From the NCBI RefSeq assembly GCF_003334305.1, contig NZ_QOWS01000035.1: a DNA stretch of 31,024 nt; one strand, written 5' to 3'. Below, one piece after another: positions 2,147-8,553 of this stretch. Within the stretch, counting starts at the first letter, position 1; every line of letters starts with the position of its first letter. The notes beneath the pieces are model-generated. The model was not told the origin of the DNA and ran no database searches. It was given only the letters and a program-made list of their open reading frames with translations. Made by a program: the position numbers and the translations under genes. Source of the DNA: Escherichia coli (GTDB lineage Bacteria; Pseudomonadota; Gammaproteobacteria; Enterobacterales; Enterobacteriaceae).

Positions 2147-3436
2147 ATGAAAGTATTAGTGATTGGTAACGGCGGGCGCGAGCACGCGCTGGCCTGGAAA
2201 GCGGCCCAGTCGCCGCTGGTTGAGACTGTTTTTGTTGCTCCGGGTAATGCAGGCACTGCACTGGAACCCGCGCTGCAAAACGTTGCTATTGGCGTGACCG
2301 ATATCCCGGCGCTGTTGGATTTCGCACAAAACGAAAAGATTGATCTGACCATCGTCGGCCCGGAAGCGCCGCTGGTGAAAGGCGTGGTCGATACCTTCCG
2401 CGCCGCCGGGCTGAAAATCTTCGGCCCAACCGCAGGTGCGGCCCAACTGGAAGGCTCAAAAGCGTTTACCAAAGATTTCCTGGCCCGCCATAAGATCCCT
2501 ACGGCGGAATACCAGAACTTCACCGAGGTAGAACCTGCGCTGGCGTATCTGCGTGAGAAAGGCGCGCCAATCGTCATTAAAGCGGACGGTCTGGCTGCCG
2601 GGAAAGGCGTTATCGTGGCGATGACGCTGGAAGAAGCGGAAGCGGCTGTTCACGATATGCTGGCGGGCAACGCTTTTGGCGACGCGGGTCATCGCATCGT
2701 TATCGAAGAGTTCCTCGATGGCGAAGAAGCGAGCTTTATCGTGATGGTAGACGGCGAGCATGTGCTGCCGATGGCCACCAGCCAGGATCACAAACGCGTA
2801 GGCGATAAAGATACCGGACCAAACACGGGCGGGATGGGCGCTTACTCCCCCGCGCCGGTAGTAACCGATGAAGTTCATCAGCGCACCATGGAACGTATCA
2901 TCTGGCCAACCGTGAAAGGCATGGCGGCGGAAGGCAACACCTACACCGGTTTTCTCTACGCGGGCCTGATGATCGACAAACAGGGCAATCCGAAGGTTAT
3001 CGAATTTAACTGCCGCTTTGGCGATCCAGAAACCCAGCCGATTATGCTGCGCATGAAGTCCGATCTGGTTGAGCTCTGCCTGGCGGCCTGTGAAGGCAAA
3101 CTGGACGAGAAAACGTCAGAGTGGGATGAACGCGCTTCTCTCGGCGTGGTGATGGCTGCGGGTGGATATCCGGGTGATTACCGCACCGGTGACGTGATCC
3201 ACGGCCTGCCGCTGGAAGAAGTGGCAGGCGGCAAAGTGTTCCACGCGGGCACGAAACTGGCGGATAACGAGCAGGTAGTGACCAGCGGCGGGCGCGTACT
3301 GTGCGTCACCGCGCTGGGTCATACCGTGGCAGAAGCGCAGAAACGCGCTTATGCCTTAATGACCGATATTCACTGGGACGACTGCTTCTGCCGGAAAGAT
3401 ATCGGCTGGCGCGCTATCGAACGCGAGCAGAACTAA
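2147..3436 (+). CDS. purD: phosphoribosylamine-glycine ligase (GAR synthetase)
   Basis: 429-aa ORF with ATP-grasp-type sequence, recognised as PurD; forms an operon with purH. Confidence 0.96.
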   Translation: MKVLVIGNGGREHALAWKAAQSPLVETVFVAPGNAGTALEPALQNVAIGVTDIPALLDFAQNEKIDLTIVGPEAPLVKGVVDTFRAAGLKIFGPTAGAAQLEGSKAFTKDFLARHKIPTAEYQNFTEVEPALAYLREKGAPIVIKADGLAAGKGVIVAMTLEEAEAAVHDMLAGNAFGDAGHRIVIEEFLDGEEASFIVMVDGEHVLPMATSQDHKRVGDKDTGPNTGGMGAYSPAPVVTDEVHQRTMERIIWPTVKGMAAEGNTYTGFLYAGLMIDKQGNPKVIEFNCRFGDPETQPIMLRMKSDLVELCLAACEGKLDEKTSEWDERASLGVVMAAGGYPGDYRTGDVIHGLPLEEVAGGKVFHAGTKLADNEQVVTSGGRVLCVTALGHTVAEAQKRAYALMTDIHWDDCFCRKDIGWRAIEREQN

Positions 3437-4758
3437 CGCGACAGTTTTGCCAATAGCGTTTTGCGCGTGATCCCTAACTGACGGGCGGCTTCGGTTTTGT
3501 TGCCGCCCGTTTTCTCCAGTGCCGCCAGAATCACTTCTTTTTCGACTTCCACCAGCGGCTGAATATCCTGACTTTGCCCCAGCGGGATCGGCGTACTGGC
3601 AATCGCCAGCGGCAGCTCGCGTTCGGAAATATATTCCCCGGTCAGCAGCACCACCGACCTTTCCACCGCGTTTTCCAGTTCACGAATGTTTCCCGGCCAG
3701 TCGTAGTGGATCAGCAAATCCATCGCCTGTGGCGTAAAGCCTTTTACCGCCTTGCGATTACGCTCGGCAAAACGCTGAAGAAAATGGCTAGCCAGCAGAG
3801 GGATATCCTCCCGCCGTTGCCGCAGCGATGGTACTTCAATCGCCACCACATTCAGGCGATAGTAGAGATCCTGGCGAAAACGCCCGGCATTCACCTCTGC
3901 GGCAAGATCGCGATGGGTCGCCGCAATCAGCCGGACATCAACCGAGATAGTCTGGTTGCTACCGACACGCTGAACTTCGCGCTCCTGAATCGCACGCAGC
4001 AGACGCACCTGCATCATCGGCGAGATATCGCCAATTTCATCGAGAAACAGCGTGCCGCCGTCCGCCTCAACAAAGCGCCCTTCCCGGCGTTTATCGGCTC
4101 CAGTAAACGCCCCTTTTTCGTGACCGAACAATTCAGATTCCAGTAAGGATTCGTTGAGTGCCGCACAGTTGAGCGTTACCAGCGGTTTTTCGCTACGTGC
4201 GCTACTGGCGTGAATCGCCCTGGCGACCAGCTCTTTACCGGTGCCGGAATCGCCGTGGATCAGTACCGTGGCTTCCGATGGCGCGACGAGGGCGATTTCA
4301 CTGAGCAGGTGTTGCATCGCCGGGCTTTTACCGACCATACCGAACTGGCTGGCAGTCACCGCAGGTGTTTCAGCATCAATACTGTGCGTATGCGCGAGCG
4401 CTTTTTCCAGCGTCGCCTGTAGGTTATCGAAATCCAGCGGCTTGATGAGATAATCCAGCGCCCCAGTTTTCAGTGCCTCTACCGCCGTCTCGACGCTGGA
4501 GTACGCAGTCATAATCAGCACCGGAATTGCCGGGTTTAACGCTTTGATCTCTTTCAGCGTGGCGATGCCGTCCATCTCCGCCATTCGCACATCGCAAAGC
4601 ACAAGATCAAAAACCTGTTCCCGCACCTGCTCCAGCGCCTGTCGCCCGCTGTTCGCCAGCGCGACGTTATAGCCCCAGCCGCGCAGTAAAGCCTGCAAAA
4701 TAGTGCAGTGGCTAATGTCATCATCCACCACCAGAATATCGATATTATCGTGCGTCAT
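3433..4758 (-). CDS. zraR: sigma-54-dependent two-component response regulator (NtrC family)
   Basis: 441 aa. Receiver domain (VVDDD...D...K), AAA+ sigma-54 activation domain with Walker A GDSGTGKE and GAFTGA motif, C-terminal HTH. Overlaps zraS by 4 nt. Confidence 0.95.
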
Positions 4759-6131
4759 CCTTGTGGGTCCTTACGCGTAATATTGACCGGAAGCCAGAGG
4801 GTGAACGTTGAGCCTTTTCCCTCCTGGCTTGCGACCTGAATTGTACCACCGTGTTGTTCAACAATATTATGCACGACCGCCAGCCCCAATCCGGTGCCTT
4901 CGGCTTTGGTGGTGAAGTACGGAGTGAAGATGGCTTCAAGCTGATCTGCCGCAATTCCCTTACCGCTGTCGGTAACGCTGATTTTCACGCCCGCGCCGCT
5001 TTCGCTGACCGTCACGCTAATCACGCCATGCTGACCAATCGCCTGAATAGCATTGAGATAGAGATTCAACAGGACCTGAGTCAGCCTGTCCGGATCGGCC
5101 TGAATTTCCGGTAATGTGTCGTTGGCGGTAAAGCGTAACTGGATCTCCCGGCTGTTTGCATCCTGGCTTACCAGCTGTAATGAGTGGTTAATCAGCGTGT
5201 TGAGATCCACCGCCTGCAAAGCCAGATGCGTTGGCTTAACCAGTTCCAGCAACTCGCTTACCACGCGGTTTAAACGGTCGGCTTCTTTCGCCATCACCTG
5301 CGCCAATTGATGCGCTTCTCCCCCTGCTGGCGCGCGTTCGGCAAAGTATTTCGCCAGTCCTTTAATCGAGGAAAGTGGGTTACGGATTTCGTGGGCAACG
5401 CCTGCCGCAAGATGCCCCAGCGCCACCAGCTTCTCTTTGCGCTTCATTTCATCTTGTAGAAGCTGGCGCGAGCGCAGATAGCGGCGATACCAGAAGAATG
5501 ACAATACGCTTGCCAGCAAGACCGTCGCCAGGGCGAAGAGGATAATCAGGGTGTTTCTCTGCTCACGATCTTCGGCACTCACAATATTACTGGCGTCGAA
5601 AGCGATGAAAATTGCTTGTGGTGTTGCGGCATACTGCTGCATATGGCGCATCCGGTGCATTCCAGCAGCAAACATCGGTTGAAACTGGCGATAAATTTCC
5701 AGAACAGGCTCGCCGTCTGCGCTATCGATCCGCCGCCACGCTTCTTCATCTCCAGGATGTAACTGCTGCATTTCCTGCGGGGAATAAAGCTGTTTTCCCA
5801 CCATGCCGGAGTTGCTATGCATCACGATTGTTCCTTGTTCATCCGTGACCGCAAACCAACGTACTCCAGGCTGCCCGGCCATTTCTTCCAGTAAGGCCTG
5901 CTGCTGCGCATGATGCATGCGCATCCCCATGCCGACGCGCGAGCCGGATTCAAGAGCGCGAATAAGTACACTGCCTTTTTCCAGCAGCGTTTGTCTGGCG
6001 GCGGCAGTCTCGCGCCCATAATCGCGAATCACCGTCACCGCAAACAACCCTACCAGCCCAACAATGACCACGGGGAGGATCGCGCTTAACCATTTAGCTA
6101 AGGAGTCTTTAGAACGTTGCATAAAACGCAT
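4755..6131 (-). CDS. zraS: sensor histidine kinase
   Basis: 458 aa. Two transmembrane segments around a periplasmic domain, H-box (HEIRNPL) and HATPase motifs (DxGxG, GxGLGL). No in-frame start further upstream (stop 14 codons up). Confidence 0.93.
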   Translation of the reverse strand: MRFMQRSKDSLAKWLSAILPVVIVGLVGLFAVTVIRDYGRETAAARQTLLEKGSVLIRALESGSRVGMGMRMHHAQQQALLEEMAGQPGVRWFAVTDEQGTIVMHSNSGMVGKQLYSPQEMQQLHPGDEEAWRRIDSADGEPVLEIYRQFQPMFAAGMHRMRHMQQYAATPQAIFIAFDASNIVSAEDREQRNTLIILFALATVLLASVLSFFWYRRYLRSRQLLQDEMKRKEKLVALGHLAAGVAHEIRNPLSSIKGLAKYFAERAPAGGEAHQLAQVMAKEADRLNRVVSELLELVKPTHLALQAVDLNTLINHSLQLVSQDANSREIQLRFTANDTLPEIQADPDRLTQVLLNLYLNAIQAIGQHGVISVTVSESGAGVKISVTDSGKGIAADQLEAIFTPYFTTKAEGTGLGLAVVHNIVEQHGGTIQVASQEGKGSTFTLWLPVNITRKDPQG

Positions 6132-6162
6132 CTTCTTCTTTGCCTGCTCATCCCTTTCTGAC

Positions 6163-6178
6163 AGCAGAAATCATGCCA
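6163..6178 (-). promoter_or_regulatory. sigma-54 promoter for zraSR
   Basis: Minus strand TGGCAT-gattt-CTGCT with GG/GC spacing of 12, about 30 nt upstream of the zraS ATG. Confidence 0.6.
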
Positions 6179-6229
6179 TCTTTTATCAGCGCTTACCCTG
6201 CGCTGTAACACAAAGGCTTAAGTTTCAAT

Positions 6230-6275
6230 GAGTAAAAATGACTCGCTACCCGCAGCAGGCGAGTCATTTTTACTC
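6230..6275. promoter_or_regulatory. ZraR upstream activator site (perfect inverted repeat)
   Basis: gagtaaaaatgactcgc (6230-6246) and gcgagtcatttttactc (6259-6275) are exact reverse complements separated by 12 bp, lying between two divergent sigma-54 promoters. Confidence 0.75.
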
Positions 6276-6317
6276 GTTTATCATGCCAGATTACCCGTCA
6301 TATCAGCGTTTCATCGT

Positions 6318-6333
6318 TGGCACGGAAGATGCA
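6318..6333 (+). promoter_or_regulatory. sigma-54 promoter for zraP
   Basis: TGGCAC (6318-6323) and TGCA (6330-6333), GG-to-GC spacing 12, about 35 nt upstream of the zraP ATG. Confidence 0.7.
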
Positions 6334-6368
6334 ATACCCGAAGTAAGACAACCACTGGAGGATTAACC

Positions 6369-6794
6369 ATGAAACGGAACACGAAAATTGCCCTGGTAAT
6401 GATGGCGCTTTCAGCAATGGCGATGGGATCGACATCTGCATTTGCTCACGGCGGACACGGTATGTGGCAGCAAAATGCCGCGCCTTTGACCAGCGAACAA
6501 CAGACAGCGTGGCAGAAAATCCATAATGACTTTTACGCTCAAAGCAGCGCACTGCAACAGCAACTGGTGACGAAGCGTTATGAATACAATGCCCTGTTAG
6601 CCGCGAACCCACCGGATAGCAGCAAAATTAACGCGGTCGCCAAAGAGATGGAGAATTTGCGTCAGTCGTTAGATGAGTTACGGGTGAAACGAGATATCGC
6701 GATGGCTGAAGCGGGTATTCCGCGCGGAGCCGGAATGGGCATGGGCTACGGCGGCTGCGGTGGTGGCGGTCATATGGGTATGGGCCACTGGTAA
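6369..6794 (+). CDS. zraP: periplasmic zinc-responsive chaperone (CpxP-like), signal peptide, Gly/His/Met-rich C-terminus
   Basis: Internal ATG at 6369 preceded by SD ggagga at 6355-6360. Product starts MKRNTKIALVMMALSAMAMGSTSAFA (signal peptide). The ORF-track start at 6228 runs through the promoter/UAS and is rejected. Confidence 0.9.
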   Translation: MKRNTKIALVMMALSAMAMGSTSAFAHGGHGMWQQNAAPLTSEQQTAWQKIHNDFYAQSSALQQQLVTKRYEYNALLAANPPDSSKINAVAKEMENLRQSLDELRVKRDIAMAEAGIPRGAGMGMGYGGCGGGGHMGMGHW

Positions 6795-6795
6795 A

Positions 6796-7491
6796 TCAGA
6801 ACGTTTTCTCGTTGGGTTGCCAGCGACAGAAATCAGAGTTTGCCACTAACAGTAATTGCGAACCTTCGGGCGCTTCCAGCCATGCCACGCTGACATCAAC
6901 AGAAGAGCGGCTCTGGCGGCGCTCGATATGCGCTATCGCCTGCGAATCTAAATCAGGTTTAATGGTTTGCCCTTCGCAGGTGGTCACGGTCTGTTCCATC
7001 GCATGCCAGCGCCCCTGGCGCAGCACGACTCTCCCCTGACGTAAGGCATCGCTAATCTGGCGGATCTGATCAGCACGATAACGGTATAAATCGATTTGGT
7101 CGTTAGAAAGCTGCTGCTTTTCCCCATCGGATTCACGTTGCATAAAGCTCAGATCACCGCGATCGTCAAAACGCGCGCGAATGTTCACCGGCGGTTTGCT
7201 GTAAACATTGATATTGATGAGCGTGAGGTTATCGCCCTGCCAGCGATACTCTCGCGTCGTGGTATCGCCACTGCGCCACGGGCTAAACACGGCAAGCAGA
7301 TGCACATTATCGCCGCTGTCTTTTCGCCAGATGCGTACCGCGCCCTGGTCTTCAGCAAATCCACTGGCGGTAAAGGGAGGAAGTGAAGAGTTGTGACTAC
7401 AGGCAGTGAGAAACAGAGCGCCTGCCAGCATCAATGATCGACGCCAGAAAGACAAAAGGGGTGAAACCACCCCTTCGTTAAAACTGTTCAC
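6796..7491 (-). CDS. yjaH: putative lipoprotein of unknown function (YjaH-like)
   Basis: ORF with lipoprotein-type signal (WRRSLMLAGALFLTAC, lipobox LTAC). Start is uncertain: GTG at 7497 or 7491, or ATG at 7431. I chose 7491 because it gives 231 aa, the length I recall for YjaH; no clear SD at any candidate. Confidence 0.7.
   Translation of the reverse strand: MNSFNEGVVSPLLSFWRRSLMLAGALFLTACSHNSSLPPFTASGFAEDQGAVRIWRKDSGDNVHLLAVFSPWRSGDTTTREYRWQGDNLTLININVYSKPPVNIRARFDDRGDLSFMQRESDGEKQQLSNDQIDLYRYRADQIRQISDALRQGRVVLRQGRWHAMEQTVTTCEGQTIKPDLDSQAIAHIERRQSRSSVDVSVAWLEAPEGSQLLLVANSDFCRWQPNEKTF
7444..7476 (-). terminator. intrinsic terminator downstream of hupA
   Basis: Minus strand AGGGGTG-GUUU-CACCCCT hairpin followed by TTTTGTCTTTCT, about 30 nt after the hupA stop. 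Confidence 0.75.
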
Positions 7492-7503
7492 TGCCACGCA
7501 ATC

Positions 7504-7776
7504 TTACTTAACTGCGTCTTTCAGTGCCTTGCCAGAAACAAATGCCGGTACGTTAGCTGCGGCAATTTTGATTTCTTTACCGGTCTGCGGGTTGCGGCCA
7601 GTACGCTCAGCGCGGTGGTTCACTTTGAAGGTACCGAAACCAACCAGTTGTACAGCATCGCCTTCTTTCAGAGACTCAGTAATTGCAGCCAGAGTGGACT
7701 CCAGAGCAGCTTTAGCCTGGGTTTTGGACAGTTCTGCTTTCTCTGCAATTACATCAATCAGTTGAGTCTTGTTCAT
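7504..7776 (-). CDS. hupA: DNA-binding protein HU-alpha
   Basis: 90-aa [17 protein letters not shown]...[12 protein letters not shown], recognised as HU alpha. Confidence 0.97.
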
Positions 7777-7962
7777 AAGTTATCCTTACAATGTGTTTAT
7801 CGCTTGCTAAGCATCGAGTGCGACGGAAATGCCAGAATAGCACTCTCCTGCATACACGCACCGATAGCCACTTTTTTTCGCCCCCCAAATGTAGACCAGA
7901 CGGGGGGCGAAAGGGAAGACTCCAGGTACGACAAATCAGGCGTTAAATCACGTTTTCTGGTC

Positions 7963-8553
7963 TTATTGCTGAAAAATTATACCAATATTGCTCTCACCCG
8001 CCTCACGCAGGTCTGCCCTAAGGCCTTTTATCAGCTCGATATCGCGTTCTTCGCACTCAGCTAAAAGTCGGAATATTTCCCACTGAATGTCCCATTCTTG
8101 CTCTACAGCTGGGTTTTCTTTAAGCTCTTCATCGCTCATTTCGCGACCAGCCTGAGTCATTTCCAGCATCGCAACGGTCGTGATGGAGGTCTTACTCACT
8201 TCCACCGCGTGTTCGAGCGTTTCACCACTCAAACGCGAATGGACCAGTTCACTTAACGCCACGCAGGCATCGATTGCCGGATAAACGCCGTACAGATCGA
8301 AATCGTCGGCTGAAGGAATCGCTTCTTCAAATTTCTCCAGTTGGCTGTCGAAATTTACTTTTGCGTCTTTAACGGTCAGCGTTTCCCAGATGAGATCGAG
8401 AATACGACGGTAAATTTGCCCATCACCAAAACCGGTTTGCTGGCAGAACATGGCGTAATTGGGGTACATGCGTTCGCATAAGCAAGCCATGAAAGTGACA
8501 TGCTGCCAGCTTTCCAGGCGCTCCAGACGCAGATGAATTGGGTTTTGTAACAT
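7963..8553 (-). CDS. yjaG: DUF416-family protein of unknown function (YjaG-like)
   Basis: 196-aa ORF, last gene of the nudC-hemE-nfi-yjaG cluster on the same strand. Confidence 0.85.
   Translation of the reverse strand: MLQNPIHLRLERLESWQHVTFMACLCERMYPNYAMFCQQTGFGDGQIYRRILDLIWETLTVKDAKVNFDSQLEKFEEAIPSADDFDLYGVYPAIDACVALSELVHSRLSGETLEHAVEVSKTSITTVAMLEMTQAGREMSDEELKENPAVEQEWDIQWEIFRLLAECEERDIELIKGLRADLREAGESNIGIIFQQ

Follow-up and report, generated by a model that had tools for sequence, protein, structure and literature searches.

Among the systems described for two genes that face each other tail to tail, the closest to the zraP/yjaH pair of Escherichia coli is the convergent excludon. ExcludonFinder lists 165 convergent excludons of strain MG1655, each detected in 50% or more of the 58 RNA-seq samples from that strain, and both yjaH-zraP and zraR-purD are among them (NAR 2025, PMC12288877). 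The arrangement is therefore already known, being annotated in K-12 and catalogued as a convergent excludon. Like other members of the catalogue, zraP (plus strand) and yjaH (minus strand) are adjacent genes that face each other from opposite strands, and the overlap of their transcripts is documented in the literature, both by the ExcludonFinder coverage and by a Rho termination region 140 nt inside zraP. However, the excludon concept rests on genes that exclude each other's expression and on processing by RNase III, whereas yjaH-zraP is known by coverage overlap alone. Moreover, at a spacing of 1 nt the ExcludonFinder call is nearly automatic, since any coverage past the stop codon counts as overlap.

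Bidirectional intrinsic terminators between convergent genes (Ju et al. 2019, as cited in PMC7815308) and REP hairpins offer a second comparison. A palindromic element of this kind occupies the homologous spot in Salmonella and Citrobacter, while that of Enterobacter lies between yjaH and purD. In contrast, E. coli has none, with 1 nt between the stop codons, and in Klebsiella pneumoniae the two open reading frames (ORFs) even overlap. The 'overlapping terminators' of the TransTermHP type are not evident at yjaH-zraP either, as there is no hairpin followed by a U-tract on either strand.

A third comparison is provided by Rho-dependent termination of untranslated and antisense RNA (Peters et al. 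2012, as cited in PMC7815308); antisense regions make up 51.5% of all Rho regions (PMC7815308). The yjaH-strand RNA is much alike, as it is untranslated after the yjaH stop codon, C-rich and G-poor, with a read-through that is sensitive to bicyclomycin. It differs from the usual antisense case in that the Rho terminator of yjaH is the normal 3'-end signal of a protein-coding gene, located inside the ORF of its convergent partner. The zraP strand, by comparison, has a weak rut character. We consider it probable that zraP and yjaH are packed tail to tail without a terminator, that the yjaH RNA is stopped by Rho inside zraP while the zraP RNA runs into yjaH, and that the two transcripts overlap.

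Spacing of the stop codons in E. coli and its relatives

The window, that is, the whole stretch of 31,024 nt of E. coli DNA that was analysed, contains the following features around the junction:

6317-6333, plus strand: sigma-54 (-24/-12) promoter motif of zraP, TTGGCACGGAAGATGCA, located as an exact match
6369-6794, plus strand: zraP coding sequence, 141 aa, with a Gly/Met-rich C-terminal tail and stop codon TAA at 6792-6794 (ORF list and RefSeq annotation)
6795, no strand: a single A between both stop codons, the only intergenic nucleotide, the same in K-12
6796-7491, minus strand: yjaH coding sequence, 231 aa, with an annotated GTG start and stop codon TGA at 6798-6796 (TCA on the plus strand)

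The junction reads ...CACTGG TAA A TCA GAACG... on the plus strand of the window sequence. The coordinates of both genes were taken from the RefSeq annotation of a strain that is 100% identical over positions 6100-7800; this region is 100% identical to several complete E. coli genomes, and is chromosomal. In the ORF list, the plus-strand ORF ends at 6794 and the minus-strand ORF extends over 6796-7497. In K-12 MG1655, yjaH (4200566-4201261) and zraP (4201263-4201688) are likewise separated by 1 nt. Window sequence, ORF list, RefSeq and K-12 thus all agree with the preliminary description, which had placed the two stop codons 1 nt apart. A 121-nt query spanning the junction gave a one-piece match in 5421 of 5426 complete E. 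coli genomes, and the same spacing is found in E. whittamii, E. albertii and other Escherichia. Mis-annotation of the stop codons was considered and ruled out, as both are found at aligned positions in Salmonella, in Citrobacter and in other Escherichia.

The identity of the genes is supported by a match of ZraP to the NCBIfam equivalog NF008584 (274 bits against a cut-off of 200) and of YjaH to PF07356/DUF1481. YjaH is a predicted lipoprotein with a visible lipobox, L-T-A-C. The motif TTGGCACGGAAGATGCA was assigned to zraP by sigma-54 ChIP-seq (PMC4591121).

RefSeq flags thiC as a pseudogene with an internal stop in strain CFSAN061769, which matches the window perfectly over 6100-7800. The thiC of the window (11958-13853) is open over 631 aa, without an internal stop, so that either the window stems from a different record or the flag reflects an assembly difference.

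A search for intrinsic terminators at the junction gave consistent results. The consensus terminator scan of 6300-7450 found no intrinsic terminator on either strand, and a relaxed hairpin search returned only weak stems, at 6788-6799 (-0.3 kcal/mol) and 7097-7116 (-1.7 kcal/mol). The junction did not fold better than shuffled sequence (z = -0.61 on the plus strand and -0.19 on the minus strand), and a GC-rich hairpin with U-tract, as expected of a bidirectional intrinsic terminator, was found neither at nor beside it. The scan, the relaxed search and the shuffling hence all support the earlier suggestion that the junction has no room for an independent terminator, and they show no sign of one. 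With a gap of 1 nt and no intergenic terminator, the 3' end of each RNA must form inside the coding region of its partner, and the zraP and yjaH RNAs overlap.

How unusual is such tight packing? We surveyed three 50-kb samples (150 kb) of the K-12 annotation, which contained 22 convergent pairs of coding sequences. Five of these pairs (23%) overlapped or had a gap of at most 1 nt, and 8 (36%) had a gap of at most 10 nt. The tight pairs were as follows (spacing in nt, overlap negative):

amiD-ybjS, -4
ybjD-ybjX, -4
ycaM-ycaN, 0
cho-ves, -41
nudG-ynjH, -35

The 1-nt spacing of zraP and yjaH is ordinary tail-to-tail packing, no rarer than expected. The other end of the zra locus offers a further example in the same window, where purD (plus strand) and zraR (minus strand) overlap by 4 nt (3433-3436). 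Their stop codons, TAA and TAG, have two bases in common. A Rho termination region antisense to purD has been reported at MG1655 4204911 on the plus strand (Adams et al. 2021, PMC7815308).

For the comparison with relatives, genome contigs were queried with a single protein (9 loci), complemented by look-ups of exact proteins. Both stops are homologous from genus to genus, and it is the spacer between them that varies:

Escherichia: 1-nt gap
Klebsiella pneumoniae (locus L014, 3705-3729): yjaH stop lost and yjaH extended to about 240 aa, giving a 25-nt overlap with the 3' end of zraP
Salmonella (locus L012, 3703-3743): 41-nt spacer with a 10-bp hairpin (z = -2.66)
Citrobacter (locus L013, 3697-3766): 70-nt spacer with a REP-like palindrome pair
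Enterobacter, Leclercia, Siccibacter, Cedecea and Sodalis: without zraPSR, so that yjaH converges directly on purD

The yjaH-purD spacer of Enterobacter contains a 10-bp GC hairpin (z = -3.26). The variability of the spacer across genera counts against selection for a particular overlap geometry.

yjaH-strand RNA and its Rho-dependent end inside zraP

Transcription of the yjaH strand involves four further features, all on the minus strand:

7504-7776, minus strand: hupA coding sequence, highly expressed, upstream of yjaH (ORF list and annotation)
7455-7476, minus strand: hairpin of the hupA intrinsic terminator (GAAGGGGTGGTTTCACCCCTTT followed by TGTCTTTCTG), in the annotated 5' coding region of yjaH
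6646-6795, minus strand: C-rich, G-poor, rut-like stretch just 3' of the yjaH stop codon (60 C, 26 G; (C-G)/L = 0.227)
about 6655, minus strand: Rho termination region of the yjaH strand (MG1655 4201402, plus strand), antisense to zraP

The hupA terminator was the only match of the consensus scan. Its use is supported by a Term-seq 3' end at MG1655 4200605 (plus strand; window 7452, minus strand) with a score of 102752, which lies 39 nt inside the yjaH ORF and was given the class 'internal' (Adams et al. 2021, PMC7815308). A second dataset has a 'Termination' event at the yjaH 5' end, with a log2 change of -2.9. The hairpin overlies the yjaH codons E-G-V-V-S-P-L-L, and the location of the terminator within the yjaH ORF is kept in loci of 10 genera (L002-L015), with compensatory changes in the stem (GGGGTG/CACCCC, GGGGCG/CGCCCC and GGGGCT/AGCCCC). 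The GTG start of yjaH, about 12 nt past the hupA stop codon, is conserved as well, and Salmonella has no alternative start downstream. An internal ATG at 7431, 3' of the hupA terminator, was considered as the true start of yjaH and rejected as a general explanation, because it is missing in Salmonella and other genera while the upstream GTG is conserved.

Translation of yjaH thus seems to depend entirely on RNA that extends past the hupA terminator. The conserved geometry suggests that hupA read-through feeds yjaH; a promoter inside hupA would be the alternative. A sigma-70 promoter scan of 6000-7900 returned 0 sites, and thus gave no sign of independent antisense promoters.

At the other end of yjaH, published DirectRNA-seq data provide direct evidence. 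The Rho region at 4201402 (plus strand) has a Rho score of 17.2 (p = 9e-85; Adams et al. 2021, eLife, PMC7815308). Reads upstream and downstream of it numbered 444 and 40 in untreated cells, and 294 and 456 with bicyclomycin, which shows that read-through is raised when bicyclomycin is present (PMC7815308). The coordinate is the position of best significance in 800-nt windows rather than the exact termination site, and is likely to lie nearer a processed RNA 3' end (PMC7815308). The Rho region implies that the yjaH-strand RNA passes the yjaH stop codon and runs ~140 nt antisense into zraP. These published data show that yjaH-strand RNA enters zraP antisense and is ended by Rho about 140 nt in. 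The preliminary description had considered zraP read-through antisense to yjaH; it overlooked this documented read-through, which runs in the opposite direction, from the yjaH strand into zraP, and is Rho-terminated.

The sequence composition fits well with this result. Downstream of its stop codon, the yjaH strand carries an untranslated, rut-like C-rich segment, 6646-6795, which no other 150-nt segment on either strand of the 31-kb window equals in its excess of C over G. The Rho termination zone lies at the far edge of this stretch, as read from 6795 to 6646, and we attribute the Rho stop at ~6655 to its C-rich, G-poor composition. The stretch is the antisense of the GGN codons that encode the glycine-rich tail of ZraP (...GAGMGMGYGGCGGGGHMGMGHW). 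The minus strand is thus C-rich here because the ZraP tail uses GGN codons on the other strand. The C-over-G skew of the zraP antisense strand is kept in Salmonella, Citrobacter and Klebsiella.

According to the annotation, zraS-zraR follow further downstream on the yjaH strand, and the Rho stop therefore plausibly insulates zraS-zraR from hupA/yjaH read-through.

The ZraS protein of the window (4755-6131, minus strand; 458 aa) is only ~86% identical to the K-12 ZraS (465 aa), and ~97-98% identical to ZraS of two other E. coli loci (L004 and L007). The flanking ZraP, YjaH and HupA proteins have 99.6-100% identity to K-12. The contrast points to divergent alleles of zraS or to recombination within the species.

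Probable course of the zraP transcript beyond its stop codon

A zraP transcript that continues past its stop codon would cross the following stretch:

6799-7455, plus strand: stretch antisense to yjaH, C/G about 1.0-1.2, without intrinsic terminator

In 150-nt windows past the zraP stop codon, C/G on the plus strand is 0.98-1.16, which corresponds to the 44th-73rd percentile. Stable hairpins are present at 6940-6979, 6999-7028 and 7222-7256, none of them with a U-tract. The first strong hairpin able to act as backstop for the zraP RNA is that of the hupA terminator, met from its reverse face. On the plus strand, this hairpin occupies 7456-7475 (-12.6 kcal/mol), ~660 nt past the zraP stop codon, and it has a poor tail, CGTTAAAACT.

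We found no mapped zraP 3' end in the published datasets that were searched. The Rho and Term-seq tables of Adams et al. 2021, in which zraP is barely expressed, have entries on the yjaH strand only and none on the zraP strand; TRS 2023 and the silver-stress transcriptome have no entry for a zraP 3' end. A study of the Salmonella sigma-54 regulon reports a 16-fold induction of zraP and is silent on yjaH (STM4171). Judged from the composition of the plus strand and its lack of a terminator, zraP read-through antisense into yjaH is likely.

Upstream of zraP, a near-perfect palindrome of 40 nt occupies 6233-6272 (TAAAAATGACTCGC...GCGAGTCATTTTTA; -20.5 kcal/mol as RNA), flanked by two divergent sigma-54 motifs, that of zraS at 6163-6179 and that of zraP at 6317-6333, and presumably serves as the enhancer-binding site of ZraR. 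An Rfam scan of 6000-8000 found no known RNA family; a match of the zraP-zraS palindrome to a plant miRNA was sub-threshold and was put down to chance.

Transcript overlap and possible regulation

Tail-to-tail packing without a terminator, with a Rho stop on one strand and read-through on the other, would work as follows. Polymerases that escape termination at the hupA hairpin would reach yjaH. Transcription of the yjaH strand passes the yjaH stop codon and proceeds ~140 nt antisense into zraP, where Rho ends it at the far edge of the C-rich stretch, and this Rho stop would presumably also keep hupA/yjaH read-through from crossing zraP into zraS-zraR. In the opposite direction, the zraP RNA from the sigma-54 promoter would meet neither a hairpin followed by a U-tract nor a marked rut, and would probably extend some hundreds of nt antisense into yjaH. 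Its end might be diffuse, set by Rho/NusG on RNA that is not translated or by head-on collision with hupA/yjaH traffic, and its latest stop may be around the back face of the hupA hairpin, ~660 nt downstream. The zraP half of this model is derived from sequence only.

Does the overlap regulate either gene? One possibility is a functional convergent excludon, in which zraP transcription induced by zinc or envelope stress would lower YjaH by collision and/or cleavage of the RNA duplex by RNase III, inversely to ZraSR activation. Several observations are compatible with this idea. The zraP gene lacks a terminator and the plus strand beyond it has weak rut character. Once induced, zraP is transcribed strongly from its sigma-54 promoter; yjaH, in contrast, sits behind a terminator. 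The pair is on the excludon list, and mscL-arfA appears to offer an E. coli precedent for crosstalk between convergent genes (PMC10070815). Yet, about 1 in 4 of the sampled convergent pairs is equally tight, and the spacing is not conserved (41 nt in Salmonella, 70 nt in Citrobacter, a 25-nt overlap in Klebsiella). The literature that was searched yielded no strand-specific data under zinc, and p19 dsRNA validation was reported as not feasible with convergent excludons (PMC12288877). Moreover, in the only joint measurement both genes changed in the same direction, with yjaH down by -2.32 and zraP by -3.84, although these values come from strand-blind macroarrays of PCR products and are weak evidence either way. 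The inverse coupling of yjaH to zinc stress that the preliminary description had raised is not supported by any data, and we regard a functional excludon as unlikely.

Regulation might also act in the reverse direction. Constitutive hupA-yjaH antisense RNA over the 3' 140 nt of zraP would then damp basal zraP expression, and the Rho gate would insulate zraSR from sigma-54-independent transcription. This idea draws on the rise in downstream reads from 40 to 456 with bicyclomycin, on the position of zraS-zraR downstream on the yjaH strand, and on the very strong and conserved rut-like patch. However, the Gly-rich ZraP tail fully accounts for the C-rich patch, which would be its by-product, and antisense Rho termination is pervasive and mostly treated as suppression of noise. 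We therefore consider regulation of zraP and zraSR by this antisense RNA improbable.

Both directions might be combined in a two-way coupling gated by Rho. In unstressed cells, hupA-yjaH antisense RNA on the zraP 3' end would be cut off by Rho at the C-rich antisense of the ZraP glycine tail, which would bar sigma-54-independent transcription of zraSR, while under zinc or envelope stress zraP transcription would sweep yjaH and lower YjaH. We regard this scenario as quite doubtful. Finally, a cryptic non-canonical terminator that forms the zraP 3' end at or before ~6800, without meaningful antisense overlap with yjaH, is extremely improbable: it could make use of the tiny stem of 3-4 bp at 6788-6799 (CUGG-UAAA-UCAG, followed by AACGUUUU), but this stem is worth only -0.3 kcal/mol, the region folds like shuffled sequence, the standard scan was empty, and in half or more of the 58 RNA-seq samples the coverage was called as overlapping.

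The preferred reading, overlapping transcripts with a Rho stop on the yjaH strand, has consequences of its own. The Rho stop of yjaH-strand RNA inside zraP is a typical case of Rho policing antisense transcription, and reads over yjaH or over the zraP 3' end need strand-specific interpretation in annotation and expression work. If the overlap turned out to be regulatory, the uncharacterised lipoprotein YjaH (DUF1481) would join the Zra envelope and zinc stress response, and excludon-type control in E. coli could be tested at this locus in a simple natural setting. If the two-way coupling were true, YjaH would belong to the Zra envelope stress response as a hidden member under inverse regulation.
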